NCBI GenBank assembly: GCA_051880415.1
Contig: JBJENX010000050.1
Coordinates: 2,594 to 66,593 of the forward strand
Reading direction: 5' to 3'
Length of the DNA: 64,000 bases
Source of the DNA: Lachnospiraceae bacterium
GTDB taxonomy: Bacteria; Bacillota; Clostridia; Lachnospirales; Lachnospiraceae
Shown piece after piece: positions 21,646-38,917 of this stretch. A program made the translations under genes and the position numbers. Within the stretch, counting starts at the first letter, position 1; the number at the start of each line of letters is the position of its first letter. Under the pieces are notes generated by a model. It saw only the letters and a list, made by a program, of their open reading frames with translations. It had not been told where the DNA came from and made no database searches.

Positions 21646-22902
21646 ATGAATATAGGGTCAGATAAAAGGGATAAAGTTCAACATGTATTTTTAATAGGAG
21701 CCAAGTCACTTGGTGCTTATGGTGGATATGAAACCTTTATCAATAAATTGACAGAATATCATCAGAATAATGATAAGCTTCAATACCATGTTGCATGTAA
21801 GGCAAATGGAGATGGATGCATGAAAGAATCCGATATAGAGGGCATTATGGCTCTTGCACATCCGGAATTTTTTGCGGAATCGGAATTTATGTATCATAAT
21901 GCCCATTGTTATAAACTTCATGTGCCAAGTATAGGTCCTGCTCAGGCAATTTATTATGATATAAGAGCTTTGCAATACAGCTGCAGATATATTAAGACAC
22001 ATCATATTGAACATGCAGTTGTGTATATTATGGCATGCCGGATTGGTCCCTTTATGAAGCATTTCTGTAAGAAATTGCATAAATTAGGAGCTAAGCTTTA
22101 TGTGAATCCGGATGGGCATGAATGGATGCGGGCAAAGTGGAACAGGTTTATTCGCAGATATTGGAAGCTTAGTGAAGGACTTATGGTAAAGCATAGTGAC
22201 CTGGTTATATGTGATTCTGTAAATATGGAGAAATATATACATGAATGTTATGATGGCAGATGGACGCAAAATCCTTCTACTACCTATATTGCATATGGGG
22301 CAGAAACAAGGAAGAGTATACTTTCCGATAATGATAAGGAATTACTGTCATGGTATCAGGAAAAGCAATTATCCCCTAAGAAGTATTATCTTGTGGTAGG
22401 AAGATTTGTTCCGGAGAATAATTATGAAACCATGATTCGGGAGTATATGAAAAGTAATACAAATAAGGATTTTGCCATAATTACTAACGTAAATGATAAG
22501 TTTTTAAATGAACTGGAGGATAGGCTGCATTACAAAAAAGATGATAGGATTAAATTTGTGGGAACAGTCTATGACCAGGAACTTTTGATGAAGATTCGTG
22601 AGAATGCCTATGGTTATTTTCATGGACATGAGGTAGGAGGAACCAATCCCAGTCTTTTGGAGGCTCTTGGAAGTACAAGACTAAACATGCTTTTAAAAGT
22701 GGGATTTAACGAAGAAGTGGCGTTGGATAGTGCCTTATATTGGACAAAGGAAGAGGGCAATCTGGCAAAGATTATAGAGCAGGCAGATAGAATGACGGAA
22801 GAAGAGATTGCCCAATATGGTCAAAAGGCAACAAACAGAGTAAAGGAAGCCTATAGTTGGGAATATATTTGCAGTGAGTATGAGAAGGTATTTTTACAAT
22901 AA
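21646..22902 (+). CDS. DUF1972-type GT4 glycosyltransferase (WchF/RgpA-like, rhamnosyltransferase-like)
   Basis: The N-terminus, FLIGAKSLGAYGGYETFINKLTEY, is typical of DUF1972. The C-terminal part has a GT1-fold EX7E-like region, GHEVGGTNPSLLEALG. Confidence 0.8.
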   Translation: MNIGSDKRDKVQHVFLIGAKSLGAYGGYETFINKLTEYHQNNDKLQYHVACKANGDGCMKESDIEGIMALAHPEFFAESEFMYHNAHCYKLHVPSIGPAQAIYYDIRALQYSCRYIKTHHIEHAVVYIMACRIGPFMKHFCKKLHKLGAKLYVNPDGHEWMRAKWNRFIRRYWKLSEGLMVKHSDLVICDSVNMEKYIHECYDGRWTQNPSTTYIAYGAETRKSILSDNDKELLSWYQEKQLSPKKYYLVVGRFVPENNYETMIREYMKSNTNKDFAIITNVNDKFLNELEDRLHYKKDDRIKFVGTVYDQELLMKIRENAYGYFHGHEVGGTNPSLLEALGSTRLNMLLKVGFNEEVALDSALYWTKEEGNLAKIIEQADRMTEEEIAQYGQKATNRVKEAYSWEYICSEYEKVFLQ

Positions 22903-22964
22903 TGAAGGGTCGCTTTTAATTGTGACCGGAAGAATTATTATGAAATACTGCCAGAGTAAGGAAT

Positions 22965-23930
22965 ATGGAATATAATGATAAGACGGTTGCTATCTGTATG
23001 GCAACATATAATGGTGAAAAGTATATAGAGGAGCAGATTCAGTCGATTATAGACCAAACCTACAGGGAATGGGTTTTGTTTATACATGATGATGGTTCAC
23101 AGGATGACACGGTTAAGTGTATACAGAGATTTCTGAATGCGGATGCAGATAGAAAGAATCAAATCATATTACTGGAAGATACTCTGTCTTTTTGCGGAAG
23201 TGCCAAGGATAATTTTGCCGGGATTCTGGATTATGTAAAAAAGAATTATGATTTTTCATATTTTATGTTTGCGGATCAGGATGATGTATGGCTTCCTGAT
23301 AAGATAAGGTTAAGTATGGAGAAGATGTTAGAATCGGAGAAGTCTGACAAAAGTATTCCGATACTGGTTCACACTGATTTAAAGGTTGTGGATGAGCAAT
23401 TAAAGGTTCTGGGTGATTCTTTTATCAGGTACAGGGCACTGAATCCAAGGGTTAGAGATATAAATCATCTTCTTGCACAAAATAATGTGACAGGCTGTAC
23501 TATGTTGTGGAATAAGCCGTTGAATGATGTGATTAATCTGGGAAACCCTGAAGTGGCAATGCATGACTGGTGGTTTTCAACCTCAGCCAGTTTGTTTGGC
23601 AGGATTGAGTTTGTAGATGAACCAACGGTTTTGTATCGGCAGCATGACAGTAACACTGTGGGAGCAACAAAGGTGAATACCATAGGATTTATTGTTAAAC
23701 GGTTGCTTGGCAATAATCATGTAAAACAAACAATACAGCTTTCAGTCAATCAGGCACAGGGATTACTGCGTTGTTATGGAAATGATATAAATCGGGAAAA
23801 CTATGCAATATTAGAGAAATATGCTACACTATACAGAAACGGAAAAATAAAAAGATGTCGGATTTTGATTGGAAACGGATATCTGAAACAGGGAATTATA
23901 CAGAGAATTGGGCAGTTAATGTATGTTTGA
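22965..23930 (+). CDS. GT2 glycosyltransferase (RgpB/WbbL-like)
   Basis: Has VAICMATYNGEKYIEEQIQSIIDQTY, HDDGSQDDT and ADQDDVW (DxD). Confidence 0.8.
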   Translation: MEYNDKTVAICMATYNGEKYIEEQIQSIIDQTYREWVLFIHDDGSQDDTVKCIQRFLNADADRKNQIILLEDTLSFCGSAKDNFAGILDYVKKNYDFSYFMFADQDDVWLPDKIRLSMEKMLESEKSDKSIPILVHTDLKVVDEQLKVLGDSFIRYRALNPRVRDINHLLAQNNVTGCTMLWNKPLNDVINLGNPEVAMHDWWFSTSASLFGRIEFVDEPTVLYRQHDSNTVGATKVNTIGFIVKRLLGNNHVKQTIQLSVNQAQGLLRCYGNDINRENYAILEKYATLYRNGKIKRCRILIGNGYLKQGIIQRIGQLMYV

Positions 23931-23983: not shown

Positions 23984-25375
23984 ATGAATAAGAAACAATT
24001 ATTAAAATATACTGTAGTTTTTTTTGTTGTTGCAATTATGACGGTTATAACCTGCTGCTGTCAGTTGTATAATGGTAAAAATATTATATTATCTATGGAT
24101 GTTGATAAAGATACATGTGCAGGTGAAGAGTTTTCGGTTTATTATACAACAAAAGAGAATCAGGAATTCACAGACGAGATGAAAGTATCAATGACCATTG
24201 CATATGAGGGGGATTCTTTATATCAATTTGCATTACCCAATAATGTTCAAAGAATAAGATTAGACCCTGGTACAAAGGTTTCAACTGTAACGCTTCGTAA
24301 TATTATGTTTTCCTATGGAAGCAGAGATTTGGAGATAGGGGACCGGATTGGTGATGATATTGAATCCACACATGATATTTCAGGGTATACTTATCAAGAG
24401 AATATGTTAACACTTCAAACAGAGGGTACAGATCCATATTTCGTCTGGGACATATCTGATTGGGGTATGAATGAATATGCATCAAAGCATATCCAAAATA
24501 TGAATTGGGTCATAAAAATCGCAGCAGATATTATTGCGTTACTATTATTAATTGTTTATTTAAAGAAGTTTGATTTCTTTGTAGAGTTCCCTGCTGAGAT
24601 TTATCATAGTAAACGTTTGATTTTACAATTGTCTAAGAATGATTTTAAGACAAAGTATGCAGGCTCATATCTGGGAATTGTGTGGGCTTTTGTACAACCG
24701 ATTGTAACAGTGGTTCTTTATTGGTTTGTTTTTGAGAAGGGCTTACGTGCCGGTTCCATGGTTTCCGTACCATTTGTTTTATGGTTGATTGCGGGACTAG
24801 TTCCGTGGTTTTTCTTTTCCGATGCAGTGCCGGGAGGAACCAATGCATTAATTGAATATCAATACCTGGTAAAAAAGGTTGTGTTTCAGATAGATATTTT
24901 ACCATTGGTGAAGGTATTTTCTGCTATGTTTGTGCATGTGTTTTTTGTTGTATTTATGCTGATTTTATATAGTTGTTATGGATATTTCCCAAGTATGTAC
25001 ACCTTGCAGATCCTGTATTATTCCTTCTGCACATTCGTGTTAGCTTTGGGAATTGTATATGCAACATCGGCAGTGGTAGGTTTTTTTAGGGATTTATCCC
25101 AAATAATTAATATCGCATTACAGGTTGGAACATGGTTAACTCCGATTATGTGGAATTTTGACAGCATGAACTTACCGGGTTGGCTAAGATTAATTTTTCA
25201 GATGAATCCAATGTTTTATATAGTACAGGGATATCGGGATGCTTTGATTGATCATGTATGGTTTTGGGAAAGACCGGGAATTACATTATATTTTTGGATG
25301 ATAACAGTTTCAATTCTTGGTATTGGAACAATGATTTTTAAGAAATTAAAAATACATTTTGCTGATGTCTTGTAA
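23984..25375 (+). CDS. ABC-2 (Wzm/TagG/RgpC-type) polysaccharide export permease with ~190-aa N-terminal TM-anchored extension
   Basis: The C-terminal ~270 aa read KNDFKTKYAGSYLGIVWAFVQPIVTVVLYWFVF followed by about 6 TM helices. The N-terminus has TM1, about 150 aa of hydrophilic sequence, then TM2. Confidence 0.8.
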   Translation: MNKKQLLKYTVVFFVVAIMTVITCCCQLYNGKNIILSMDVDKDTCAGEEFSVYYTTKENQEFTDEMKVSMTIAYEGDSLYQFALPNNVQRIRLDPGTKVSTVTLRNIMFSYGSRDLEIGDRIGDDIESTHDISGYTYQENMLTLQTEGTDPYFVWDISDWGMNEYASKHIQNMNWVIKIAADIIALLLLIVYLKKFDFFVEFPAEIYHSKRLILQLSKNDFKTKYAGSYLGIVWAFVQPIVTVVLYWFVFEKGLRAGSMVSVPFVLWLIAGLVPWFFFSDAVPGGTNALIEYQYLVKKVVFQIDILPLVKVFSAMFVHVFFVVFMLILYSCYGYFPSMYTLQILYYSFCTFVLALGIVYATSAVVGFFRDLSQIINIALQVGTWLTPIMWNFDSMNLPGWLRLIFQMNPMFYIVQGYRDALIDHVWFWERPGITLYFWMITVSILGIGTMIFKKLKIHFADVL

Positions 25376-25427: not shown

Positions 25428-27593
25428 ATGGAAGGTAATAAGGAGAATACAAATCAATTTGATATGTTTTGTCAGAGGATTCTGCCGTCCTTTATGTATA
25501 AAACAATCCGTTGTGTAACACATGAGGGTGTTCGGGTATTTTATTTTAAACTGCTTCGAATGATGAACTTAAAAAATCAGTATCCAAAGTGGATATTACA
25601 GAATGAAACTGATTTGTTGAGGGTAGAACCATTAGAATATAACCCACTTATTTCAGTTGTGGTTCCGGTTTATAATGTGAAAAGTAAATTATTAATTGAC
25701 TGTATTGAATCTGTTGTAAACCAGACCTATAAAAATTGGGAATTATGTCTGGTAGATGATTGTTCCACCATGGAAAGTGTTGGGACGGTATTACATTCTT
25801 ATGAGGGTAATGAAAAAATCAAGATAACATATCGTAAGGAAAACGGACATATATCAAGAGCTACTAATACAGGTATAGAGATGGCAACAGGGGAGTTTGT
25901 GGCTTTGTTGGATTGTGATGATTTGCTGGCTCCAAATGCTTTGTATGAGATGGCAAAGAAGCTTAATTCAAATAAAGAATATGATTTTATATATAGTGAT
26001 GAAGATAAGCTGTCCCCGAATGGAAAAAAACGGAAACATCCATTCTTTAAACCGGATTGGTCTCCAGATACATTCATGTCATTAATGTATACCTGCCATT
26101 TTGCAATGTTTCGAAAATCGCTGTTGGATGAGCTTGGAGGAATGAGAGTCGGCTTGGAAGGCTCACAGGATTATGATTTGGTTCTCCGGGTCATGGAAAA
26201 AACAGATAAAATCGGTCATATTCCTAAGATTCTTTATCATTGGAGAGAAAGAAAAGGATCCACGGCAGATAAAATGACTGCAAAACCATACATTATTGAG
26301 GCAACTAAAAAAGCAAAACTGGATGCATTGGAAAGAAGAGGATTATCCGGCCGGTTGGAATATCTTGAAGATATTGTAATGTTTAGAATTGTATATGATA
26401 TTAAAGAGAATCCCAAGGTTAGCATTATTATTCCTTCCAAGGATAATTATAATATTTTAAAGCAGTGTATTGAGTCTGTTAATTCCGTTACTGAGTACAA
26501 CAACTATGAGATTATCGTTGTGGATAATGGAAGTATAGAAGAGAATAGAAAACTGTATGAAAAGCTTTGTGAGGATAATGGCTGCCACTACCATTATGAG
26601 CCAATGGAATTTAATTTTTCCAGAATGTGCAATATTGGGGCATCAATTGCAACGGGAGAGTATTATTTGTTTCTGAATGACGATATAGAGATTCAGGGAC
26701 CCCAGTGGCTTACCAGAATGTTGGGACAGGCACAGTTATCCCATGTAGGAGCTGTTGGATGCCGGTTGATATATCCCAACACTAATTTTATTCAGCATGC
26801 AGGTGTGGTAAATTATGAAATTGGCCCGGGACATGCTTTTCATCAGACAAATGATGATATGAATTGTTATTGGGGAAGAAATAAAGTTGATTATAATTTT
26901 GTTGCGGTAACAGGAGCTTGTTTACTGGTATCAAAGAATAAATATGATGAGGTTGGTGGTTTTGAAGAGGATTTGCCGGTGGCATATAATGATGTAGAAC
27001 TATGCTTTAAACTGGTTGAAGCAGGTTATTATAATGTGTTACGGAATGATGTGCGTATGCTTCATTATGAATCGGTAAGCCGGGGATATGATGATGTAAA
27101 TCCTGAAAAACTGGAACGACAGAAGAGGGAGATGGCAAAATTATATGAATTACATCCGGGATTTGTTGGATATGACCCATGTTATAATCCAAATCTTTCA
27201 CGGAATAAAGGTGATTTTACCTTTAATGTAATGAATGCAAAAAGAGTATCCCTTCCCCGGGTTGTTCATTTAGATGTAAAAGAAGATAATATTATAGAAT
27301 ATGGAATAGATGAAATAAAGATTGACGAGATTCTGTTTATTACAGGGTGGGCATTCATAGGAAAAAAGCCCGGAAATATTCAGGTGTTGTTACAGGGAAA
27401 TAACGGTGAACAATATATAGTGAAAACATATCGTTATTACAGGCCGGAAATCCGTAATGCTTATGGAAATAAAAAACTGGCATTTTCCGGTTTGGAGGTG
27501 GCAATCGATATTAAAGATTTGCCTAAAGGAAGATATAGTATATACTTTATATCTAAAGAAAATGCCGTGAAAGTGGATTCTGTAACATTATAG
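25428..27593 (+). CDS. Dual-GT2 glycosyltransferase (polymerase-like) with C-terminal beta-rich domain
   Basis: GT2 domain 1 has ISVVVPVYN...LVDDCST...LDCDD. GT2 domain 2 has VSIIIPSKDN...VVDNGS...LNDD. It is a paralog of residues ~430-1080 of the 35675 ORF. Confidence 0.8.
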   Translation: MEGNKENTNQFDMFCQRILPSFMYKTIRCVTHEGVRVFYFKLLRMMNLKNQYPKWILQNETDLLRVEPLEYNPLISVVVPVYNVKSKLLIDCIESVVNQTYKNWELCLVDDCSTMESVGTVLHSYEGNEKIKITYRKENGHISRATNTGIEMATGEFVALLDCDDLLAPNALYEMAKKLNSNKEYDFIYSDEDKLSPNGKKRKHPFFKPDWSPDTFMSLMYTCHFAMFRKSLLDELGGMRVGLEGSQDYDLVLRVMEKTDKIGHIPKILYHWRERKGSTADKMTAKPYIIEATKKAKLDALERRGLSGRLEYLEDIVMFRIVYDIKENPKVSIIIPSKDNYNILKQCIESVNSVTEYNNYEIIVVDNGSIEENRKLYEKLCEDNGCHYHYEPMEFNFSRMCNIGASIATGEYYLFLNDDIEIQGPQWLTRMLGQAQLSHVGAVGCRLIYPNTNFIQHAGVVNYEIGPGHAFHQTNDDMNCYWGRNKVDYNFVAVTGACLLVSKNKYDEVGGFEEDLPVAYNDVELCFKLVEAGYYNVLRNDVRMLHYESVSRGYDDVNPEKLERQKREMAKLYELHPGFVGYDPCYNPNLSRNKGDFTFNVMNAKRVSLPRVVHLDVKEDNIIEYGIDEIKIDEILFITGWAFIGKKPGNIQVLLQGNNGEQYIVKTYRYYRPEIRNAYGNKKLAFSGLEVAIDIKDLPKGRYSIYFISKENAVKVDSVTL

Positions 27594-27628
27594 ATGTAAC
27601 CGCTTTTTCGGTGTATAGGAGTAATGAC

Positions 27629-28930
27629 ATGAGCAATGATATAGCAATTAAAGTAGAGCATCTGACTAAGATGTATAAATTATATGATAAACCATCTGAC
27701 CGATTAAAAGAGTCTTTGGGCCTTTCTAAAAAGAAAAAATATCAGGAGCATTATGCATTAAAGGATGTAAGCATGGATATTAAGAAAGGTGAGACTGTTG
27801 GTATCATTGGAACGAATGGTTCCGGAAAGTCAACGATTCTTAAGATTATTACCGGGGTATTAAATCCTACAAGTGGCAATGTGTCCATTGATGGAAGAAT
27901 CTCAGCGTTGTTAGAGCTGGGAGCCGGATTTAATATGGAATATACAGGAATTGAAAATGTATATCTGAATGGAACCATGATAGGTTTTTCCAAGGAGGAG
28001 ATTGATGAACGTCTGGATGATATTGTTGCATTTGCTGATATTGGAGAATTTATTCATCAGCCTGTAAAATCATATTCCAGTGGTATGTTTGTGCGACTTG
28101 CTTTTGCTGTTGCAATTAACATTGATCCGGAAATTCTGATTGTTGATGAAGCATTGTCGGTAGGTGATGTGTTTTTTCAAACAAAATGTTATCATAAATT
28201 CGAGGAATTTAAAGAACAGGGAAAAACTATTTTATTTGTAAGTCATGATCTTGGAAGTATTGCAAAATATTGTGACAGAGTGGTTTTGTTAAATAAAGGT
28301 GAAAAAAAGGCTGAGGGAGAACCTCAGGAGATGGTTGACCTATACAAAAAAGTAATGGTTGGTCTTGATGGTGAGGATAATTGTAACCTCAAAAGAGATT
28401 CAGAGGATTGTACGAATGAACAAAAATTGGGAGAGAATAACAACCAACATACCACTTGGAAAGAGCAGCTTCGTTTAAATCCAAATGTGAATGAATATGG
28501 AAATGGAATGGCAGAACTTATTGATATTGGTATTTTTGATGAGAATGGGATAGTGACAAGCTCTATCATGAAAGGTACAAGGTTTACACTTAAATCAAAA
28601 GTGAAATTTTATGAAAAAGTGCAGGATCCAATATTTACATTTACATTTAGAGATATAAAGGGTACTGATATAACCGGTACAAATACAATGTATGAGAAGG
28701 TTAGTATTGGTTCTGCAAATCCACAGGAAGTGTATATTGCTTCGTTTGAACAGAATATGGATCTACAGGGTGGAGAGTATCTTTTATCAATGAGTTGTAC
28801 AGGTTTTGTAAATGGGGAATTTGTGGTATATCATAGGTTGTATAATGTTGTAAATGTGACTGTTATTTCGGGAAAAAATACGGTTGGTTTTTATGATATG
28901 AATTCTATAACAAAGATTGTAAAAGAATAG
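27629..28930 (+). CDS. ABC transporter ATP-binding protein (Wzt/RgpD/TagH-type) with C-terminal Wzt_C-like glycan-binding domain
   Basis: Has Walker A GTNGSGKST, signature YSSGM and Walker B ILIVDEALS. The C-terminal ~145 aa read NEYGNGMAELIDIGIFDENG...FRDIKGTDITGTNT...LQGGEYLL. ATG at 27629 follows TAGGAG. Confidence 0.88.
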   Translation: MSNDIAIKVEHLTKMYKLYDKPSDRLKESLGLSKKKKYQEHYALKDVSMDIKKGETVGIIGTNGSGKSTILKIITGVLNPTSGNVSIDGRISALLELGAGFNMEYTGIENVYLNGTMIGFSKEEIDERLDDIVAFADIGEFIHQPVKSYSSGMFVRLAFAVAINIDPEILIVDEALSVGDVFFQTKCYHKFEEFKEQGKTILFVSHDLGSIAKYCDRVVLLNKGEKKAEGEPQEMVDLYKKVMVGLDGEDNCNLKRDSEDCTNEQKLGENNNQHTTWKEQLRLNPNVNEYGNGMAELIDIGIFDENGIVTSSIMKGTRFTLKSKVKFYEKVQDPIFTFTFRDIKGTDITGTNTMYEKVSIGSANPQEVYIASFEQNMDLQGGEYLLSMSCTGFVNGEFVVYHRLYNVVNVTVISGKNTVGFYDMNSITKIVKE

Positions 28931-28942
28931 GAGAACAAAACG

Positions 28943-29902
28943 ATGAAGTTAATAATTCAAATACCATGTTATAATGAAGCAGAAACATTAGAAATTGCAT
29001 TAAATGACCTTCCAAAACATATTGATGGAATTGATGAAATAGAATATCTTATTATCAATGATGGGAGTAAGGACAATACAGTAGAAGTTGCTCGTAATTG
29101 GGGAGTTCATTATGTTGTTAACTTTAAAAGAAATAAAGGACTTGCAAAAGGGTTTATGGCCGGACTTGATGCATGTCTTCGTAATGGAGCGGACATTATT
29201 GTCAATACGGATGCAGATAATCAATATAATGGAGATGATATTGAAAAATTAGTTCGACCCATTATTGAAGGGAAGACAGACATTGTTATTGGAGAGAGAC
29301 CGATTGACCAGACAGAACACTTTTCTCCACTTAAAAAGAAATTACAACATTTTGGTAGCTGGGTTGTAAGAGTAGCTTCTGATTCGGATATTCCTGATGC
29401 ACCAAGTGGATTTCGTGCATATAGCAGGGAAGCTGCATTGAGAATAAATGTGACGAATGAATACACATATACATTGGAGACAATTGTACAAGCCGGAAGA
29501 GAGAAGATTGCTCAAACGTCTGTGCCGATTCGAACAAATGAAGAGTTAAGACCGTCGAGATTATTTAGCAGCATGTTCGGTTATGTTAAGAAATCCATGG
29601 TTACAATTATCCGGGCTTTTATGATGTACAAGCCTCTTAAGTTTTTTACGATTATTGGAATCATCCCATTTCTACTGGGGGTTGGTTTAGGATTAAGATA
29701 TGTAATAATGTTATGTATAGACGGGGCAGATGGGCATGTTCAGTCTTTGATACTTGCCAGTATACTGATTTTGATGGGATTTATGACGATTATTATTGGT
29801 TTGCAGGCTGATATTATTGCCCGAAATCGAAAGTTATTAGAGGATATTCAATATCATGTGAGAAAACTTGACTATGAGGGAAAGAATACAGATGATAAAT
29901 AG
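28943..29902 (+). CDS. GT2 polyprenyl-phosphate glycosyltransferase (CsbB/GtrB/ArnC-like)
   Basis: Has IIQIPCYNEAETLE, LIINDGSKDNT and NTDADNQY. Two C-terminal TM helices match the GtrB-type architecture. Confidence 0.75.
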   Translation: MKLIIQIPCYNEAETLEIALNDLPKHIDGIDEIEYLIINDGSKDNTVEVARNWGVHYVVNFKRNKGLAKGFMAGLDACLRNGADIIVNTDADNQYNGDDIEKLVRPIIEGKTDIVIGERPIDQTEHFSPLKKKLQHFGSWVVRVASDSDIPDAPSGFRAYSREAALRINVTNEYTYTLETIVQAGREKIAQTSVPIRTNEELRPSRLFSSMFGYVKKSMVTIIRAFMMYKPLKFFTIIGIIPFLLGVGLGLRYVIMLCIDGADGHVQSLILASILILMGFMTIIIGLQADIIARNRKLLEDIQYHVRKLDYEGKNTDDK

Positions 29903-29913
29903 GTATATATAAT

Positions 29914-30942
29914 ATGGAAAAGAGAGATTACAGAATTGATTTATTAAGATCAATTGCACTTGGTTGTATTATACTTGCACATGTAGGACCATCTTCTTTT
30001 GTATTTGAGTTGCGAAATTTTGATGTGACATGTATGTGTTTTTTAATGGGAATGTCTTATTGCCTGACAGCAAAAGATTTGGATTTTTTTGGTTATATTC
30101 ATTATATTATCAAAAGATTTAGACGACTTGTGATTCCAACATGGATTTTTCTGACGATATATTTTATTGTTTTTAATTTTTTGGGGATATCTTTCACTTT
30201 GCATGATTACAAATACTCATACTTTATGATTGACGGAATAGGATATGTTTGGATTATGCGGGTATATATGTTGATTGCAATTTTAATGCCTTTCTTTATG
30301 TTTATATGTAAGAATGTAAATTCAGAAGGTATTCTGTTGTTTATACTAATAATATGTTATGGATCTTATTTGTATTTGATAGATGTATATAATAGTGGAA
30401 TCGTGTCGGGGCATCATATTAATATATTATTTATGTATTTTGTATTATACGGAATTGGATTCGGTCTGATTTCTTATATCGGATTGATATATACTCAAAT
30501 ATCATCTAAGATGAAAGTTGTGATTTTTTTATTGTTGGGGGCCTGTTTTTTACTGATTGTAAATAATAATGGTTTTATGAGTCTTCAGGCATATAAATAT
30601 CCACCGACTGCATATTACATTACATATGGTATATGCGTTAGCATAATATTATACGAGCTGTTTGGTTTGAAAATATTTGAAAAGTTTATAAATTTAAAAA
30701 TATGGACATGGATTTCTAAAAATTCATTGTGGTTGTATTTTTTGCATGTATTTCCTGTGACGGCAATTAAAATATATAATTTGGGTTGTATTGAGAACAC
30801 AACAGTATTTCGATGGTTGTTTTGTGTTGTGATAGCAATTATAATGACATTAATGATGAACAACTTAATTAAATATGGAAAAATAGGAAAGAAGAAAGCA
30901 TATGAGAGATTTCATAAAGAGAATGTGGAAAAAATTCGTTAA
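29914..30942 (+). CDS. Acyltransferase family 3 membrane O-acyltransferase
   Basis: The N-terminus reads RIDLLRSIALGCIILAHV. About 10 TM helices follow. Confidence 0.8.
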   Translation: MEKRDYRIDLLRSIALGCIILAHVGPSSFVFELRNFDVTCMCFLMGMSYCLTAKDLDFFGYIHYIIKRFRRLVIPTWIFLTIYFIVFNFLGISFTLHDYKYSYFMIDGIGYVWIMRVYMLIAILMPFFMFICKNVNSEGILLFILIICYGSYLYLIDVYNSGIVSGHHINILFMYFVLYGIGFGLISYIGLIYTQISSKMKVVIFLLLGACFLLIVNNNGFMSLQAYKYPPTAYYITYGICVSIILYELFGLKIFEKFINLKIWTWISKNSLWLYFLHVFPVTAIKIYNLGCIENTTVFRWLFCVVIAIIMTLMMNNLIKYGKIGKKKAYERFHKENVEKIR

Positions 30943-31333
30943 TCGAGAGACTATATTATATGGTATATTTGGTGTAGGTACTTCCATATTAAATGTGGTT
31001 CTATTTAAAGTTTTGTTATTAACAAATATGGAGTACAAAGTTGCAAATTTGATAACAATTATTGTTGTAAAATTAGCAGCTTATTTATGTAATAAGAATT
31101 TTGTTTTTCAAAGTCACTGTAGTAATTTTTTAGAGTTGTTAAAGGAGTTTGGAAGGTTTGTTGTTGCACGTGGCGCTACTGCATTGATTGATTATTTTGG
31201 TGTGATATTATTGGTAGAACTATTGGATGCAAACAAAGTTATAAGCAAGATATTTGTTACGGTTTTGGTTATTGTAATTAATTATTTTGTCGGGAAGAAA
31301 CATGTGTTTAAAAATATCAAGACGGATGATTAA
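30902..31333 (+). CDS. GtrA-family small membrane protein (lipid-linked sugar translocation)
   Basis: About 140 aa with 4 TM helices. Has YGIFGVGTSILNVVLFKVL and KNFVFQS motifs. The start could be 30902 or 30923. Confidence 0.75.
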   Translation: MRDFIKRMWKKFVNRETILYGIFGVGTSILNVVLFKVLLLTNMEYKVANLITIIVVKLAAYLCNKNFVFQSHCSNFLELLKEFGRFVVARGATALIDYFGVILLVELLDANKVISKIFVTVLVIVINYFVGKKHVFKNIKTDD

Positions 31334-31356
31334 CAAGTCAACAGGAGATTATTTTA

Positions 31357-33660
31357 ATGAATTATAAGATTATTAAACAAGCATTAATTGAAAAAAAAGA
31401 ATATGTTTTTGCAACTAGTGTATGGTTTTTATTAATTCTTTTGTTATACGGTAGATTTATCTTCACTGATGCACAGATATCACCAACCAATCTTATGTAT
31501 TCTTTTGCGGTTCCATATTCGTCGTATGAAATAGAAACTGAGGGTCCATTATTATCCGATCCGGTTGATCAACAATTGCCACCTTTGTATAGCATTTATA
31601 AGCTTCATGATTCTATATTTTGGAATTCTGATATGGCTTTTGGAACAGCAAATACTTTAGAAACAGTGATGTATCCTTTAAATTGGGTGTTTGTTTTACC
31701 AATGGGGATAGCATTTTTATTAAAATGTGTTTTGAAGACGTCAATTGCTTATTTTGGTATTTATCTATTAATAAGACAGATAAAGTGTAATAATAGTTCA
31801 GCAATAATAAGTGCATTAATGTATTCATGTTGTTCGGGAATGGTTACATGGTTTTATTGGCCTCATACAGATGTTATGGCTTTTGCACCATGGGCCTTTT
31901 TGTACGCAGATAAAATGATGCAATCCAAAAACTTTAAATATGCAATACATTTGGGAATGATTATTTATTTATTGATTGTTGCGGGGATGCTTTCATTTGC
32001 CGGATATATATTATATATGGTAGGCTTTTATGTGTTATTTGGTGCAATTATAAATAACAAAAAACATATAAAAGCAATTATAAAAATATATTTTTTCTTT
32101 GCGAGCTCTGTGGGATTAGGACTTGTTATGTCGTTACCATATTTAAAACAGATGATTAGTGAGGTTATTGATAATGGATATGCGGATTCTCGTTTAAGTA
32201 TGGCAAGAAGTATATTTAGCTTCTCATATCTAAGAACTTTCTTTTTGCCATATTTTAGAAATGAATTGTCTATTACTTTTACGGAAGGAACTTTTTATAT
32301 AGGTCTTTTGGGTGTACTTTTGGTTGGTCTGAGTTTTGTATACATCCGACAAATAAAAAATAAATATTGGCCAATCTCAGCAATGATATTAGCGGTTTTA
32401 TTATTTACTCATTGGTTAGATGAAATATATGTTTTAATGCCAGCGGTAAATACATCTTCGAGGCTTAGGTTGGTAAATCCTTTTGCGTTAGTATTATGCG
32501 TTATTGTTGGATTAGTATTTAATCAATTTAATAAATCATGCTCTGAAAAAAATAGTACAATAAGATATTTTATTATGCGATGTATAATATATGTTGTTGT
32601 TGTATTTGTCGCAGTTCATTATGCAAAAGTTGAAATTCTTTTTGATGGTAACGAATATAAGAAAATGCTTGTCGTGTTGGCTGGGTTTATCATACTTTTG
32701 GAGTTATATATTAATGGTAGGAATATAAAAGGAAAATTGGTTTCGTATGGTTTGTTATTGGTTTTTTTATTTGTCGATATGATACCATTTGTTGAGGAAT
32801 ATCAACCTGTAATTTATGGTGATGTCGATATGATTCCGGAACCAACAGAAAGTGTAGAATTTCTTCAAAATAATTTAGATGATGCAAGAATTTATCCGAT
32901 TTCAGGGTGGACAATGTTCCCGAATTCCAATGAGTATTATAATATTTCAAGCATATCGGGGCATGGATTTGTAAATACAAATCAAGATGTGATAAGCTAT
33001 TTGAAGATTGTAGACGATGAGTGTTATGCAACTGTAACTAATGTTCATGGTCAAAAAGTTGATAATTATAACTTACTTTCATGGGCAGGTGTAAAGTATA
33101 TAGTTTGTGATAAAAATTCAAGTGCAAATATGGAACAGGGGCTGAAAAAAGTTCATGAAGGAAATGATGGAGTAGATATATATGAGTTGGAACAGTATGC
33201 ACCTAGAATATATTTGGCAGAAAATGCAGTAAAAATAAAAAAATCAGAGTTAATATTAGATGAAATGGCGAATCTATATAAGCCCAATACAGTATATTTT
33301 GAAAAGGAAAATGGAAAAGATTATAATTATACATTATCAAAAACAGAAGAATTAAAAGTTATTCAAAATGAAGATGATAACGTGAAAGTATCTGTTAACC
33401 TCGAAAATGGAAGATATGTAGTATTTAACGATTATTATAATGATGATTGGAATGTATATGTGGATGGAGAACTTTCAAATCTTGAAAAAGTTAATTATTT
33501 ATTTAAAGGAGTTTATGTAGAAAAAGGTGAACATATAGTAGAGTTTAGGTATAATTCTAAGAATTTGATTGTTTTAATGTTCATATCATCAATTTGTTTT
33601 GTGTCGTGTATAATTAGTTTAATAGTTCTGACGAAAAAAACAAGTGGAGGTAAGCTGTGA
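31357..33660 (+). CDS. YfhO-like polytopic membrane glycosyltransferase (GT-C-type, extracytoplasmic)
   Basis: 767 aa with many TM helices and a large C-terminal extracytoplasmic domain. An N-terminal SDPVDQQLPPLY...W....G....YPLNW pattern resembles the YfhO first-loop region. It is adjacent to CsbB-like and GtrA genes. Confidence 0.55.
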   Translation: MNYKIIKQALIEKKEYVFATSVWFLLILLLYGRFIFTDAQISPTNLMYSFAVPYSSYEIETEGPLLSDPVDQQLPPLYSIYKLHDSIFWNSDMAFGTANTLETVMYPLNWVFVLPMGIAFLLKCVLKTSIAYFGIYLLIRQIKCNNSSAIISALMYSCCSGMVTWFYWPHTDVMAFAPWAFLYADKMMQSKNFKYAIHLGMIIYLLIVAGMLSFAGYILYMVGFYVLFGAIINNKKHIKAIIKIYFFFASSVGLGLVMSLPYLKQMISEVIDNGYADSRLSMARSIFSFSYLRTFFLPYFRNELSITFTEGTFYIGLLGVLLVGLSFVYIRQIKNKYWPISAMILAVLLFTHWLDEIYVLMPAVNTSSRLRLVNPFALVLCVIVGLVFNQFNKSCSEKNSTIRYFIMRCIIYVVVVFVAVHYAKVEILFDGNEYKKMLVVLAGFIILLELYINGRNIKGKLVSYGLLLVFLFVDMIPFVEEYQPVIYGDVDMIPEPTESVEFLQNNLDDARIYPISGWTMFPNSNEYYNISSISGHGFVNTNQDVISYLKIVDDECYATVTNVHGQKVDNYNLLSWAGVKYIVCDKNSSANMEQGLKKVHEGNDGVDIYELEQYAPRIYLAENAVKIKKSELILDEMANLYKPNTVYFEKENGKDYNYTLSKTEELKVIQNEDDNVKVSVNLENGRYVVFNDYYNDDWNVYVDGELSNLEKVNYLFKGVYVEKGEHIVEFRYNSKNLIVLMFISSICFVSCIISLIVLTKKTSGGKL

Positions 33661-34793
33661 TGCGAGAGTTACATGAGGATAAAAAAGATGCATCTGTTGA
33701 GTTGATGAGAATAGTTGCATGTATAACAGTTATTGCGACACATATCAAATTGCGTGATTTTGTTTGTTTAGATGGAACTATTAATAAAAGTCAAATTTTT
33801 CTTGCAAGTTTTGCCGGAACAGAAGGTGTGGCAGTTTTTTTTATGATTGCAGGTTTTTTTATGTTCCGAAGTAATAGTTTTAAAAAGATGATTTCCCGTT
33901 GTGTGAAATCCATTATATTACCAAGTTTAGTTTATGTGATATTACTATGTTTTTTGGGGGAATGGATAAGCGGAAGACAGAATGTACTAATTTCAATAAA
34001 AACAGGGATACAATATATAAAACCTACAATAATAGGCATTTTAAATTGGGATGCTAATGCTTTTATGCATGGGGGACATTTGTGGTATATTTTTACATAT
34101 ATTCAGTGTATGTTATGGTTTCCGTTATTAAAATATGTTTGTACAGAATTGGATAAAAATGCTATAAAGGTTAGGCGATATATTATGATAATGGCCATTT
34201 TAAATATTTGCATCAATGATTTAAAAAAGATATTTACTTCAGGGATAGTAACGGTAACAGCCTATACCATCGTAAGTATAGCATTGTTTGAGATGTTGTG
34301 GGGATATGAATTATATACCAATATTAGGGGGAAGTGCTTAAACAATAGAGTGATTCGCGTTGTGGTATTCTTTCTATATTTTGTATTACATTACGTGAAT
34401 TATCTCATTGGTTTGTATTTGTTTCAGGTGACGGATGGAACGACATGGGGATTTGCGTGGAATAATCTTGTATATATTTTGTCTGCAACATGCTTGATTA
34501 TTTTTTTCTTTACCTTTGATTTTAAACATAAAAAAATTATTAACTTTATATCTTCTTGCACTTTTTATATTTATATAATACATTATGCTTTGGTTGTAAA
34601 ATTTGAAACGTCTGGATGGCACAGTCGTATAGTTGATTATTTTATCATGAAAAATGATAATATTTTTGGAGAAATTGGATATACAGTTGGATATACCTTA
34701 ATTATATTTATTCTGTCATTTTTGATTTCGGAGATAATTATGGAGTTACAGGCGATTATTGGTTTATTGAAAAAAAAGATAAGTAGAGGGTGA
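33660..34793 (+). CDS. Acyltransferase family 3 membrane O-acyltransferase (second copy)
   Basis: Has VELMRIVACITVIATHI and is polytopic. The ATG overlaps the upstream stop codon (TGATG). Confidence 0.75.
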   Translation: MRELHEDKKDASVELMRIVACITVIATHIKLRDFVCLDGTINKSQIFLASFAGTEGVAVFFMIAGFFMFRSNSFKKMISRCVKSIILPSLVYVILLCFLGEWISGRQNVLISIKTGIQYIKPTIIGILNWDANAFMHGGHLWYIFTYIQCMLWFPLLKYVCTELDKNAIKVRRYIMIMAILNICINDLKKIFTSGIVTVTAYTIVSIALFEMLWGYELYTNIRGKCLNNRVIRVVVFFLYFVLHYVNYLIGLYLFQVTDGTTWGFAWNNLVYILSATCLIIFFFTFDFKHKKIINFISSCTFYIYIIHYALVVKFETSGWHSRIVDYFIMKNDNIFGEIGYTVGYTLIIFILSFLISEIIMELQAIIGLLKKKISRG

Positions 34794-34802
34794 TGATCAT
34801 AT

Positions 34803-35654
34803 ATGGGAAATAAATATATTGATTTTTTTAATAAAAATTCTAATATAGAACAGGGCTTATCAAGAATAGATGATTATGATTTGTTTTATCAGTTTGCACC
34901 TATGAGGAAAAATATTATCAATTGGTATAAATATAAAGAAAATTCAACTGTGTTAGAGATCGGTTGTGGTTGTGGAACATTAACAGAGTTTTTTTTAGAA
35001 TTTGCAAAAAATGTGACTACTCTTGAAATTGATGATGAGTTATTTGCAATGAGTAAATTGCGTTTTAACGATATTGAAAATGTGGATAACCGTTGTGGAG
35101 ATTTTTCTGCAATAAGGGAATATGAAAAGTTTGATTATATTGTAATGATTGGTGTATTTGAAAAACTGGGGAAATATTTTCCTTATTTAAATGTAAATGA
35201 TATGGAACAACTATATGTTCAATATTTAAGAATTATATGTTCCCATTTGACTGAAAATGGGGAAATTATAATTGGTTTAGATAATAAATATGGCTTAAAA
35301 TTCTGGTCTGGAATGAAGGATGAATTTAGTGGAAAAGAATTTTATGGAATTGAAGGAGATGTATCTGAGGCCTCTCTTAGTAGATTTGGTTATAAAAATC
35401 TGATGAGTTTGTTTAATAGAATTAAAGATATTCATATTGATTATTACTATCCGGTTCCGGATTTTCGATTTCCAACAGAAATATATTCAGATGAGTATCT
35501 TCCCAAACCGGGATGTATAAATAAAATAACTCCATCTTATAGAGAAAATCGCTTGATGATATTTGATGAGGTTCGCGCATTTGAAAATATATGTAAAGAT
35601 GGACTTTTTAAAGAATTTGCAAATTCTTATCTTATGATATGTAAAAAGAAATAG
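34803..35654 (+). CDS. Class I SAM-dependent methyltransferase with ~90-aa C-terminal extension
   Basis: Motif I is VLEIGCGCGTLTEFF. An acidic loop reads TLEID. The post-I region reads YIVMIGVFE. Confidence 0.75.
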   Translation: MGNKYIDFFNKNSNIEQGLSRIDDYDLFYQFAPMRKNIINWYKYKENSTVLEIGCGCGTLTEFFLEFAKNVTTLEIDDELFAMSKLRFNDIENVDNRCGDFSAIREYEKFDYIVMIGVFEKLGKYFPYLNVNDMEQLYVQYLRIICSHLTENGEIIIGLDNKYGLKFWSGMKDEFSGKEFYGIEGDVSEASLSRFGYKNLMSLFNRIKDIHIDYYYPVPDFRFPTEIYSDEYLPKPGCINKITPSYRENRLMIFDEVRAFENICKDGLFKEFANSYLMICKKK

Positions 35655-35674
35655 CGAAAATAATATTTGTGTAG

Positions 35675-38600
35675 ATGGAGAATAGAATGGAAAAGATAAT
35701 ATATACAAAATATAACTCAACTAGAAAACCGGAATTTCGTCTTATGACATCAATAATTGAATCAGAAGATGGATGGTATGTTAAAAAAATGCCTATTGAA
35801 AATGATGCGTATAAACTTATAGATAAAATAAAAAATAATTATTCACTGCTATTATCCTGTAATTATGATTATATACCGGTGGAATATTGTGAACAATCAG
35901 GTGGTCTTTGTTTTAAATATATTACAGGAGAATCTCCGTTGGATTCAATAGATTTTCGGCATGAGAAATTAGAGACCATAATTAATAAAATTAAAGATGT
36001 TATTGGTTGTATTTTTCCTGTTGATGATACTAATTGTAAGAGGTTTGAATATTGTGATTCGTTTGAAGAAATGTTTCCAACGTGCAGACCTAGTGAAAAT
36101 GAAAAAAGTTACTATATTTCAAATATTGATTCTATTTTTGATAATTTTATTATTAAAGATGATAAAATTTGGTGTATAGATTATGAATGGGTTGTTGATT
36201 TTGATGTCCCAATTCGTTATTTAGTATATAGAGCATTACATTATTTGTATTTAGAAAAAAAAGTATTTTTAGATTCTTATATAAATGAGGAAACTTTTTT
36301 GTCTCAATTTGATTTCTCAGACAAAGATATAGAATTATTCTACAGTATGGAGATGAAGTTTCAACAATATGTATATGGTGAAAATTGGCAGTGTGATTTG
36401 CTTGGAAAATATGAGAAAAAGAATAATATTTTGAACCCATCGCAAACAGAAGTTGAGTTGTTAAATAAAGAGATAGAAATGAAAAATGTTCATATTAAAA
36501 ATTTATCTGCTCAAATTGAAATAGATACCAATAAAATGGAAAATATGAATACATTAATTAATCAAAAAGATGTGCATATTGGAAATTTAAGTAGGGAGCT
36601 AAAAAATAAAGATGTAATAATAGAAAACAAAGAAATAATAATAGAAGATAAGGATATTCATATATCCAATTTAAATAAGATAATTAAAGATAAGGATTTA
36701 CAAATCGGGGCTTTGAGTGAATATGTGTCAAAAGTAAAAAGGGCGTTTCGTGATCCGCTGTATGCGACTAAAATTTTCTGTAAGAAGATTTTGCGTAGAA
36801 TAAAATCCAAAAAAAATCAGTTTGTGGATAGTTATTATGATAAGAAATATAGAGATTTAAGAGAGATAAGTGTAGACGAAAAGTATCGTAAATGGATTGT
36901 ACAATTGGAAAAACAAGATTGCATAAGAGAAACTTTTGAGTATAATCCTATGATTTCTGTTTTAGTGCCGGTATATAATGTATTAGACAAACATCTGGTT
37001 CCATGTATTGAGTCTGTTCTTAATCAAATATATACTAATTGGGAGTTGTGTCTTGTTGATGATGCATCCACGTGGGGGAATGTAAAAAAGACATTAAAAG
37101 GATATGAAAATCATGAAAGGATAAAAGTAATATATAGAGAAGAAAACGGACATATATCAAGAGCTACAAATTCTGCATTAGAAATTGCAACTGGAGAATT
37201 TGTTGCATTTTTGGATTGTGATGATTTGTTGAGTCCAAATGCGTTATATGAGGTTGTTAAGAAACTAAATGAAGATGCATCCCTTGATTTTATATATAGT
37301 GATGAGGATAAAATTGATGATGATGGTAATAATCGCCATATGCCCCATTTTAAACCGGATTGGTCTCCGGACACATTGCTTTCTATGATGTATACATGTC
37401 ACTTGGGCGTTTATAGAAGAACTATTCTAAATAAAATTGGGGGATTTAGAGTCGGTTATGAGGGTGCCCAGGATTATGATATGACCCTGCGGTTTGTGGA
37501 ACAAACTAATAAAATTGGACATATATCTAAAATATTATATCATTGGAGGGAACGGGCAGAATCAACAGCGGGTGCTTCTGATGCAAAACCCTATATAATT
37601 GAAGCTAATAAAAGGGCAAAAGAAGATGCATTACTAAGAAGATGTATTAATGCAAGTGTTGGACGAATTGAGAACAGCTTTTATTTTAGAATAAGATATG
37701 TGGTTGAAAATAATCCTAAGGTAAGTATATTGATTCCTTCAAAAGATAACTATAGGATTTTAAGACGTTGTGTAGATTCAATCTATATGAAAACAGAGTA
37801 TAAAAACTTTGAACTTATTTTAATAGATAATGGTAGTTCTGGTCATAATAAATTATTATATAGTGCTTTGGCAGATCAATATGGATTTAAATATATTTAT
37901 AAAAAACAGGATTTTAATTTTTCTAGAATGTGTAATATTGCTGCCCAAAATGCATCTGGAAAGTATTTCTTGTTTTTGAACGATGATACTGAAGTTTTAT
38001 CAGGTGATTGGTTAGAGTTGATGTTGGGACAAGCGCAGCAAAGTCATGTTGGTGCGGTAGGAGCAAAACTTTTATATCCTGAGACAGAGAATATTCAGCA
38101 TGTTGGAATAATTAATTTAAAAGTTGGACCATCTCATGCATTTGCTAATTATCCTGACAATCAAATATATTATTTCGGCCGTAATTATATTGAATACAAT
38201 TATATAGCTGTTACGGGAGCTTGTTTGATGATAGAAAAAGATAAATTTGAACAAGTTGGTGGATTTGATGAAGAATTAGCAGTTGCATATAATGATGTTG
38301 ATCTTTGCTTTAAGTTGGTAGAGGCAGGATATTATAATGTAGTGCGTAATGATGTTATTTTATTGCATTATGAATCTATTAGTCGGGGATATGATAATAC
38401 GGATGATGAGAAATTTAAAAGATTAACAAAGGAACGGGAAAAGTTGTATCAAAAGCACGAAATATACCGTGAGTATGATCCTTTTTACAATATTAACTTG
38501 TGCGATGACAATATAGATTATTCTTATAATTATTCAAATGTAATGAGCAAAATGATGGAAGTGAGTACTAATCCGGTTGAAGCTAAAGATGCGACTACAT

Positions 38601-38917
38601 TAATTGGTAATATTGATATTGTGAGAAATCAAAAGCAGATGTATATTGAGGGATGGGCGTTTGTTCGTGGTTATAGAAGAAATAATAATAATAGCATTGT
38701 TATTTCTTTAAAGGGTAAAAATAAAACTTATTATATTCATACTGAAAAAACCATGAGAGAAGATGTTGTGAATTTGTATCCGAATGAACAACATATAAAA
38801 TACATTGGTTTTAAGTGTCAGTTTGAGAAGGAAAGTCTTGAAAGTGGTAATTATCAAATTGGAATTATTTGCAAAAAACAATTGCTAATAACCGATAAAG
38901 TATTAGAAATTATATAG
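35675..38917 (+). CDS. Multidomain protein: kinase-like N-domain, coiled coil, two GT2 domains, C-terminal beta-rich domain
   Basis: IDSIFDN...CIDYEW (aa 151-172) gives the APH/protein-kinase-like DxxxxN and IDxE motifs. Heptad repeats span about aa 258-360. The GT2 domains have ISVLVPVYN...VDDAST...LDCDD and VSILIPSKDN...IDNGS...LNDD. The alternative start at 35687 has the better RBS. Confidence 0.8.
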   Translation: MENRMEKIIYTKYNSTRKPEFRLMTSIIESEDGWYVKKMPIENDAYKLIDKIKNNYSLLLSCNYDYIPVEYCEQSGGLCFKYITGESPLDSIDFRHEKLETIINKIKDVIGCIFPVDDTNCKRFEYCDSFEEMFPTCRPSENEKSYYISNIDSIFDNFIIKDDKIWCIDYEWVVDFDVPIRYLVYRALHYLYLEKKVFLDSYINEETFLSQFDFSDKDIELFYSMEMKFQQYVYGENWQCDLLGKYEKKNNILNPSQTEVELLNKEIEMKNVHIKNLSAQIEIDTNKMENMNTLINQKDVHIGNLSRELKNKDVIIENKEIIIEDKDIHISNLNKIIKDKDLQIGALSEYVSKVKRAFRDPLYATKIFCKKILRRIKSKKNQFVDSYYDKKYRDLREISVDEKYRKWIVQLEKQDCIRETFEYNPMISVLVPVYNVLDKHLVPCIESVLNQIYTNWELCLVDDASTWGNVKKTLKGYENHERIKVIYREENGHISRATNSALEIATGEFVAFLDCDDLLSPNALYEVVKKLNEDASLDFIYSDEDKIDDDGNNRHMPHFKPDWSPDTLLSMMYTCHLGVYRRTILNKIGGFRVGYEGAQDYDMTLRFVEQTNKIGHISKILYHWRERAESTAGASDAKPYIIEANKRAKEDALLRRCINASVGRIENSFYFRIRYVVENNPKVSILIPSKDNYRILRRCVDSIYMKTEYKNFELILIDNGSSGHNKLLYSALADQYGFKYIYKKQDFNFSRMCNIAAQNASGKYFLFLNDDTEVLSGDWLELMLGQAQQSHVGAVGAKLLYPETENIQHVGIINLKVGPSHAFANYPDNQIYYFGRNYIEYNYIAVTGACLMIEKDKFEQVGGFDEELAVAYNDVDLCFKLVEAGYYNVVRNDVILLHYESISRGYDNTDDEKFKRLTKEREKLYQKHEIYREYDPFYNINLCDDNIDYSYNYSNVMSKMMEVSTNPVEAKDATTLIGNIDIVRNQKQMYIEGWAFVRGYRRNNNNSIVISLKGKNKTYYIHTEKTMREDVVNLYPNEQHIKYIGFKCQFEKESLESGNYQIGIICKKQLLITDKVLEII

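Follow-up and report, generated by a model that had tools for sequence, protein, structure and literature searches.

Two adjacent open reading frames (ORFs) of a gut Lachnospiraceae bacterium probably represent, judging from the homology of their sequences, a split member of the terminator-polymerase type known from ORF6 of Klebsiella pneumoniae O7, encoded in an ATP-binding cassette (ABC) transporter-dependent cell-wall polysaccharide locus. They are located in a 64,000-nucleotide (nt) stretch of the assembly GCA_051880415.1 (contig JBJENX010000050.1, positions 2,594 to 66,593 of the forward strand), hereafter called the window. The first ORF encodes a class I S-adenosylmethionine (SAM) methyltransferase of 283 amino acids (aa). 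The second (35675–38917, + strand) begins 20 nt downstream of the end of the first, on the same strand, and encodes a 1080-aa protein comprising a kinase-like domain, a coiled coil, two modules of glycosyltransferase family 2 (GT2) and a beta-rich tail. Both ORFs and their spacing were found as reported in a first-pass annotation made from the sequence alone, which had regarded them as a capping module in the style of Escherichia coli O9a WbdD joined to a polymerase. The functional logic and the domain order of that proposal stand; the descent does not, the true homologue being O7 ORF6. The positions of the features are listed in Table 1.

Catalytic modules and their counterparts in O7 ORF6

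ORF6 of K. pneumoniae O7 consists, in order, of a methyltransferase, a cryptic kinase resembling aminoglycoside phosphotransferases (APH), a coiled coil and two GT2 rhamnosyltransferase modules, and was shown to phosphorylate and then methylate the glycan acceptor, which results in a methyl-phosphate cap (Kelly et al., J Biol Chem 2024, PMC11231755). According to the same study, the kinase is 'quite different' from that of WbdD in sequence and structure, and the published list of ORF6 orthologues comprises proteobacteria and cyanobacteria only (PMC11231755). The exact O7 ORF6 protein was not among the returns of our homologue search, the best match being 54% identical. The comparison rests, therefore, on relatives of ORF6 and on text obtained by optical character recognition (OCR) of the supplementary alignments of PMC11231755, from which residues 1–442 and parts of both glycosyltransferase modules were rebuilt.

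The N-terminal domain of the large ORF matched no Pfam or NCBIfam family even at E 10, and a word-index homologue search with this domain returned only three proteins. The family was found by an exhaustive profile search, which yielded 2,364 cluster representatives (50% identity clusters) at E ≤ 1e-3 and 1,819 at E ≤ 1e-10. In an alignment of 34 diverse members, 25–39% identical to the window domain, residues K12, K38, D152, N157, D169, E171, W172, P179 and R186 are invariant in all 34 homologues, which is the pattern seen in protein-kinase-like enzymes (beta3-Lys, D-x4-N, metal-Asp), with an APH-like spacing. The signature pointed out in the first-pass annotation (nt 36125–36190) is indeed in place, with IDSIFDN at aa 151–157 (nt 36125–36145) and CIDYEW at aa 167–172 (nt 36173–36190), and its residues D152, N157, D169, E171 and W172, kept in 34/34 homologues, are not chance matches.

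The AlphaFold2 model of the domain, obtained with the 34-sequence alignment, has a predicted local distance difference test score (pLDDT) of 94.6 and a predicted template modelling score of 0.90. It features a bilobal fold with the beta3 Lys, a catalytic D-x4-N loop and a metal-binding Asp, as in the APH/choline-kinase branch. A Foldseek search against the PDB gave 67 matches at E ≤ 1e-3. The best 50 of these 67 comprise nothing but choline kinase LicA, APH(2'')/(3') enzymes, macrolide phosphotransferases and Rio kinases, i.e., protein-kinase-like small-molecule kinases only, with probability 1.0 and template modelling (TM) scores up to 0.53; the pneumococcal choline kinase LicA (4r7b) is the best match. 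As modelled, the N-terminal domain is a kinase fold of the APH/choline-kinase-like kind, and the possibility that it would turn out to have some other fold, named beforehand as a ground for abandoning the proposal, is therefore set aside.

Since the available ORF6 sequence is an OCR fragment of residues 1–442, homology of the kinase was assessed through profiles of ORF6 homologues. In hmmsearch, the profile of the window family matched 120 full-length homologues of the N-terminal part of ORF6 (about 50% identical to it) with 28–37 bits in the catalytic loop and the C-lobe. The hhalign comparison of the window kinase alignment with the O7-type kinase alignment covered the whole domain (98.2% probability, E 6.3e-14, 205 columns); D152 was aligned with the Asp of F[IL]DAVPQN (D441 of ORF6) and D169 with the Asp of IDKEW. 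The two kinase subfamilies, window type and O7 type, share about 16% identity and are connected solely by this profile-to-profile comparison. In a separate observation, methyltransferases of the ORF6 type were seen fused to both divergent subfamilies, the window type in P0044, P0083, P0085, P0090 and P0099 and the O7 type in P0152–P0271.

The methyltransferase ORF carries motif I (VLEIGCGCGTLTEFF, aa 50–64), as noted in the first pass, and belongs by Pfam to class I SAM families (RrnaAD at 3.8e-10; also Methyltransf_12/25/31/23/11). Its best sequence matches in the PDB are generic rRNA and cyclopropane-fatty-acid methyltransferases. In phmmer searches, aa 23–226 matched the reconstructed residues 1–442 of ORF6 with 55 bits, and the orthologue from Cyanobacterium stanieri matched with 96 bits, the matches spanning aa 21–234. 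The C-terminal extension typical of the ORF6 family, NxxGLK[YF]...GIEG...PD[YF][KR][LF]P, is present as well. The protein is predicted to be the phospho-sugar (phosphate) O-methyltransferase of the terminator.

In the large ORF, Pfam recognises only two GT2 domains, at aa 428–588 and aa 681–895 (2.6e-50), which agrees with the dual polymerase placed after the coiled coil in the first-pass annotation; no family was assigned to the first ~420 aa or the last ~130 aa. By BLASTP, the first GT2 module of ORF6 (residues 766–1140) shares 43% identity with GT2 module 1 over 206 aa, and the second (residues 1141–1414) shares 51.5% with GT2 module 2 over 163 aa. Taken module by module, these matches mean that every catalytic module of the window pair is homologous to ORF6, in the same order.

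The start of the large ORF is probably Met5 (codon 5, ATG at nt 35687), because a GGAG sequence lies 6 nt upstream of it and because an identical database protein, P0004 ('MAG: glycosyltransferase [Lachnospiraceae bacterium]'), has 1076 aa. The homologues of the protein all start with M-[KE]-K-[IV]-[IL]-Y-T-K-Y-N.

Beyond the order of methyltransferase, kinase, coiled coil and GT2 modules 1 and 2, the window pair and ORF6 share a Wzm/Wzt export partner. They differ in several respects. The window methyltransferase is a separate ORF and not part of one polypeptide, and the window kinase subfamily is very divergent. An immunoglobulin (Ig)-like carbohydrate-binding module, reported between the kinase and the coil of ORF6, is absent from the window protein, which has no room for it, because the kinase ends at about aa 250 and the coil begins at about aa 252. 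Conversely, the window protein ends in a beta-sandwich tail that is apparently missing from ORF6, as the supplementary alignment stops soon after the common FYN(V/I)NL motif. Finally, the window contains a second dual-GT2 paralogue, and its host is a Firmicute with a wall glycan, whereas ORF6 makes the O antigen of a lipopolysaccharide.

Coiled coil, tail and distribution of the architecture

The roughly 100 aa of heptad-periodic coiled coil noticed in the first pass were found at aa 252–356 in a single unbroken heptad register. The hydrophobicity contrast of the a/d positions is 0.547 compared with 0.146 ± 0.06 in shuffled sequences, and none of 20,000 shuffles reached the observed value. The coil is about 105 residues or 15 heptads long, which would correspond to roughly 15 nm for a straight alpha-helical coil, and contains a K[DN]xHIxNL motif repeated every 28 aa. 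In 118 homologues, kinase and GT2 are separated by linkers of 85 to 443 aa, and the flanking domains are conserved. A hypervariable linker between conserved flanks fits the pattern expected of a length-setting spacer.

The DNA encoding the coil includes a tandem repeat with a period of 21 nt (2.6 copies, 79% matches), whose units NKDVIIE, NKEIIIE and DKDIHIS make up exactly one heptad each, so that an in-frame change of ruler length is conceivable. It is rather doubtful, but would be of interest, that slippage at this repeat shifts the ruler and the glycan length in frame between strains or cells, and that chain length is in addition set by a mixed complex of the 1080-aa protein and a ruler-less 721-aa paralogue (see below), possibly assembled via their shared tails, with the stoichiometry tuning the modal length. 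If true, mixed-complex stoichiometry and repeat slippage would be undescribed for terminator-ruler systems in Firmicutes.

The coil is followed by a basic amphipathic junction segment with a net charge of +5 to +8 and a hydrophobic moment of up to 0.58. Its equivalent, 'KAxKNPFY...KK', terminates the stand-alone homologues consisting of kinase and coiled coil. No transmembrane segment was found anywhere in the large-ORF protein, and the junction segment is possibly a membrane-association or docking helix.

The beta-rich tail of about 110 aa described in the first pass was modelled by AlphaFold2 as an all-beta sandwich at aa ~975–1080 (pLDDT 94.3). Foldseek gave no PDB match for it at E < 0.01 (best E 0.011); weak resemblance was seen to Ig-like and CBM21 folds and to the carbohydrate-binding domain of Aquifex aeolicus Wzt. 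The same tail is present in the 721-aa paralogue and in proteins comprising methyltransferase, kinase, coiled coil and tail without GT2 (P0018, P0091, P0142), and can be regarded as an independent module because it also ends these latter proteins. It is a candidate carbohydrate-binding or docking module.

The architecture of relatives was counted for the best 151 of the 2,364 representatives of the N-domain family. In 85 of the 151 the kinase is found with or without a coiled coil and no other module was detected, and 42 contain kinase, coiled coil and GT2 modules, with or without the tail. The remaining ones also carry the methyltransferase, followed by the kinase with or without a coiled coil (15 representatives), by kinase, coiled coil and GT2 modules with or without the tail (6), or by kinase, coiled coil and tail (3). 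In many relatives, a methyltransferase homologous over its full length to that of the window is fused directly N-terminal of the kinase-like domain. Hence, gene fusions found elsewhere connect the two window ORFs.

The split form is common: among the 120 homologues listed, 60 cover at least 95% of the protein at 39–52% identity and have no methyltransferase Pfam domain. The named homologues listed (Lachnospiraceae, Clostridiales, Bifidobacterium) are all annotated only as 'glycosyltransferase'. The order of wzt (with Wzt_C), methyltransferase and kinase genes was observed in 7/7 independent related loci, with wzm upstream wherever the contig extends, and the methyltransferase is split from the kinase in 8/9 related loci, L009 being fused. 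The seven independent loci were found on metagenome contigs and in genome bins of Lachnospiraceae and Ruminococcaceae; five genome loci were obtained with an alignment of the family. Two of them are compact five-gene cassettes of wzm, wzt, methyltransferase, the kinase-coiled coil-GT2-GT2-tail gene and phosphoglycosyl transferase.

Table 1. Positions of the terminator-polymerase modules and of the associated export and initiation genes in the window
Feature	Position (nt)	Strand	Evidence
Class I SAM methyltransferase, stand-alone, 283 aa	34803–35654	+	Pfam methyltransferase families; ORF6-type homology
Modelled APH/choline-kinase-like kinase domain, aa 1–~250	35675–36427	+	AlphaFold2, Foldseek, invariant residues, hhalign
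Coiled coil, aa ~252–356, ~15 heptads	36428–36742	+	Heptad register, shuffles
21-nt (one-heptad) DNA tandem repeat within coiled coil	36603–36657	+	Tandem Repeats Finder
Basic amphipathic junction segment, aa ~353–380, RAFRDPLYATKIFCKKILRRIKSKK	36731–36814	+	Charge, hydrophobic moment
GT2 module 1, aa ~420–660	36935–37654	+	Pfam Glycos_transf_2; ORF6 identity
GT2 module 2, aa ~661–940	37655–38494	+	Pfam Glyco_tranf_2_3, Glyco_tranf_2_2; ORF6 identity
C-terminal beta-sandwich tail, aa ~951–1080	38525–38917	+	AlphaFold2
Polyprenyl glycosylphosphotransferase, Cps2T-type beta-1,4-rhamnosyltransferase, single GT2 (initiation/adaptor)	20143–23930	+	NCBIfam, Pfam
Wzm ABC-2 permease, 463 aa	23984–25375	+	Pfam ABC2_membrane aa 213–421
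Dual-GT2 paralogue, same tail, no kinase/coiled coil, 721 aa, between wzm and wzt	25428–27593	+	Homology
Wzt ABC ATPase with C-terminal Wzt_C domain	27611–28930	+	Pfam ABC_tran 5e-24, Wzt_C 7.4e-40

Proposed mode of action and alternative explanations

While the homologies of the modules are established by the comparisons given above, we infer the chemistry and the geometry of the mechanism. The phosphoglycosyl transferase and the Cps2T-like rhamnosyltransferase of the locus would build a primer linked to polyprenyl phosphate. At the cytoplasmic face of the membrane, the C-terminal GT2 pair would lengthen a probably rhamnose-rich chain, and the 721-aa paralogue would probably join in this extension. 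The coil of about 105 residues would keep the N-terminal APH-like kinase at a fixed distance from the polymerase. On reaching the kinase, the non-reducing end of a chain spanning the coil would be phosphorylated with ATP, and the separate methyltransferase, presumably docked on the kinase domain, would methylate the phosphate. The methyl-phosphate cap would halt extension by GT2 and would be read by the Wzt_C domain of the Wzm/Wzt exporter, so that only finished chains are exported. Outside the membrane, side-chain glycosylation by the GtrB-like, GtrA and YfhO-like (GT-C) proteins and O-acetylation would follow. The cap predicted for the window pair is probably a methyl-phosphate at the non-reducing end that ends the chain and licenses its export. 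The capped, length-measured, ABC-exported wall glycan anticipated in the first-pass annotation is thus supported as a functional reading by the ORF6 homology, the coil and the linkage to Wzt_C, but not as a derivative of WbdD.

Several points weigh against this proposal. The biochemical evidence comes from the Gram-negative O7 ORF6, and sequence fixes neither the acceptor sugar nor the phosphorylated position, nor whether phosphate or a hydroxyl receives the methyl group. The methyltransferase, encoded separately, is presumed to dock on the kinase. Neither the kinase profile nor the subfamily profile gave a significant match to the reconstructed ORF6 1–442 fragment, only the first strand being aligned; the identity of the kinase to the O7 type is as low as ~16%, and homology follows from profile comparisons with homologues about 50% identical to ORF6. 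The ruler role of the coil is carried over from WbdD, WbbB and O7, and no dTDP-rhamnose (rml) genes were found among the window ORFs scanned.

Four other explanations were considered, and none of them is favoured. The kinase and the methyltransferase may modify the glycan in a way other than a chain-ending cap, either as an internal decoration or by direct O-methylation of a hydroxyl, as in E. coli O8 WbdD and Geobacillus WsaE, with a separate role for the kinase and a coil that merely oligomerises. Regiochemistry and the methyl acceptor are beyond what sequence can tell, and methyl-only terminators exist (PMC3482155). Nevertheless, this explanation seems unlikely: in the N-domain family the kinase always goes with the methyltransferase, as a pair or as a fusion, the window methyltransferase is homologous to the phosphate methyltransferase of O7, and the hypervariable coil length together with the Wzt_C linkage fits the terminator/ruler logic of O9a, O12, O4 and O7.

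It is very unlikely that the two enzymes act on a small molecule, e.g., as an ethanolamine/choline kinase and a phosphoethanolamine N-methyltransferase-like enzyme supplying phosphocholine for a wall polymer. LicA (4r7b) does top the Foldseek matches, and the methyltransferase of the fused relative P0083 matches plant phosphoethanolamine N-methyltransferases (4.5e-9); that of the window, by contrast, is closest in the PDB to the generic enzymes named above. Such a pathway would have no obvious need for an obligatory coil, a GT2 fusion and a strict Wzt_C linkage. Phosphocholine synthesis was rejected because no LicC- or LicD-type cytidylyltransferase/phosphocholine transferase genes were found among the window ORFs scanned and because the homologous O7 enzyme acts on a glycan acceptor (PMC11231755).

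True membership of the WbdD family (E. coli O9a/K. pneumoniae O3), with a eukaryotic-protein-kinase-like kinase and a methyltransferase of common ancestry, is highly improbable. WbdD (PDB 4AZS family; PMC3482155) resembles the proposed system in its methyltransferase and kinase cap, its coiled-coil ruler and the Wzt carbohydrate-binding domain which reads the methyl-phosphate. The order of methyltransferase, kinase and coiled coil is alike, the D-x4-N...D catalytic spacing is that of WbdD N356/D369 (PMC3482155), and a partner Wzt with a carbohydrate-binding domain is found in both. However, phmmer and hmmsearch retrieved no WbdD chain or kinase from the PDB sequences with the domain, with the 34-sequence profile (E up to 10) or with the relative P0083, and WbdD is absent from the best 50 Foldseek matches. 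The demonstrated homologue, O7 ORF6, itself has a kinase unlike that of WbdD (PMC11231755). The WbdD kinase is Src-like, of the eukaryotic protein kinase type, whereas the window kinase is APH/choline-kinase-like. WbdD is not fused to a polymerase and recruits WbdA by a C-terminal membrane helix; in the window protein the coil is covalently joined to the GT2 pair. Stand-alone relatives made up of kinase and coiled coil occur as well.

A catalytically dead pseudokinase, which would merely provide the methyltransferase with a docking or scaffold head, is hardly credible: a Gly-rich loop motif is not evident and no Pfam kinase model matches the domain, but the phosphoryl-transfer residues K38, D152, N157 and D169 are invariant across 34 sequences at 25–39% identity, and the Asp aligned with D152 is essential in O7 ORF6 (D441A) (PMC11231755).

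Two further systems had been named for comparison in the first pass. WsaE of the Gram-positive Geobacillus stearothermophilus, with a methyltransferase and two rhamnosyltransferase domains, reportedly serves an ABC-transporter-dependent rhamnan with a methylated non-reducing end; it is said to have no kinase, the cap being 2-O-methyl-rhamnose. WbbB (K. pneumoniae O12/Raoultella terrigena) unites a terminator, a coiled-coil ruler and a two-glycosyltransferase polymerase in one polypeptide (PMC11231755), but its terminator is a beta-Kdo glycosyltransferase, whereas that of the window is the kinase/methyltransferase pair.

The kind of system is already known. The earlier statement that this exact architecture had not been described does not hold, since a biochemical characterisation of the fused form (methyltransferase, kinase, coiled coil, GT2, GT2) appeared in 2024 (PMC11231755) and the split form is common among homologues. 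New are the split methyltransferase, the lack of an internal carbohydrate-binding module, the beta-sandwich tail common to the ruler-less paralogue and the Firmicute host. Also new is the recognition, by sequence comparison, of a very large unannotated kinase subfamily as belonging to the terminator class. Profile homology now connects this large family of APH-like sugar-end kinases with O7 ORF6, the one example proven biochemically. No literature on Gram-positive methyltransferase-kinase terminators was found beyond the 2024 J Biol Chem paper.

To our knowledge, the setting of chain length in ABC-exported wall glycans of gut and rumen Firmicutes has been little studied. Our data indicate that the strategy established for Gram-negative O antigens, in which a terminator and a coiled-coil ruler act together with a Wzt that reads the cap, is also common in their wall polysaccharide loci, and a methyl-phosphate-capped, probably rhamnose-rich glycan of defined length is predicted for the Lachnospiraceae bacterium. 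The value of the finding lies in the annotation and study of chain-length control in Gram-positive wall glycans; no new mechanism is involved, and the system is not mechanistically surprising.

Gene neighbourhood in the window

The window is chromosomal and carries dnaG, sigA, trmK and NIF3, an arrangement typical of Firmicutes. Upstream of the pair, the locus contains Wzm, Wzt with Wzt_C and a polyprenyl-phosphate initiating transferase, as expected for an ABC-transporter-dependent pathway. The glycosylphosphotransferase scores 367 bits with EPS_sugtrans of NCBIfam (cut-off 296) and matches Pfam Bac_transf, and the neighbouring enzyme of glycosyltransferase family 4 (GT4) scores 566 bits with the Cps2T equivalog (NCBIfam; cut-off 500). 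The Wzt-type ATPase with a cap-binding-type C-domain, mentioned in the first-pass annotation, was identified by Pfam; the nearest solved relative of its C-domain is A. aeolicus Wzt (8dku, E 3.5e-6).

Wzm has an N-terminal extension of about 200 aa (~23984–24600), and no Pfam match was found for its aa 1–205. In the related loci L001, L005 and L007, Wzm has a length of about 270–280 aa, compared with 463 aa in the window. The 721-aa paralogue is 50% identical over 716 aa to aa 367–1080 of the large ORF and 45% identical to each GT module of O7 ORF6. It is a candidate second polymerase component, and a similar dual-GT2 paralogue arrangement is seen in L006.

The region between wzt and the methyltransferase gene (28943–34793) encodes a GtrB-like polyprenyl-phosphate sugar synthase (GT2), GtrA, a 767-aa YfhO-like membrane protein and two AT3 acyltransferases. 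It looks like a set for three-component extracytoplasmic glycosylation and O-acetylation. The upstream gene set as a whole (EPS_sugtrans, Cps2T, Wzm, Wzt_C, GtrB/GtrA/YfhO-like, AT3) points to a rhamnose-containing, ABC-exported wall glycan which is decorated outside the membrane.

Directly after the pair, 39094–59350 is occupied by another polysaccharide locus, which is of the Wzx (flippase) type. It comprises a 628-aa Polysacc_synt_2 dehydratase, a DegT aminotransferase, a small Bac_transf protein, GT4 and GT2 enzymes, DUF6625, DUF1919 (minus strand), an asparagine-synthase-like protein, an FkbM methyltransferase and two DUF6077 proteins. Elsewhere in the window, a uridine-kinase/PRK domain was assigned to just the C-terminal half of a 552-aa protein (3955–5613), and a class I methyltransferase domain to just aa 270–400 of a 511-aa protein (11949–13484), with no domain assigned to either N-terminal part. 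On the minus strand, 60516–61982 encodes a UDP-glucose/GDP-mannose dehydrogenase unusually fused to an HTH_3 DNA-binding domain at its N-terminus.

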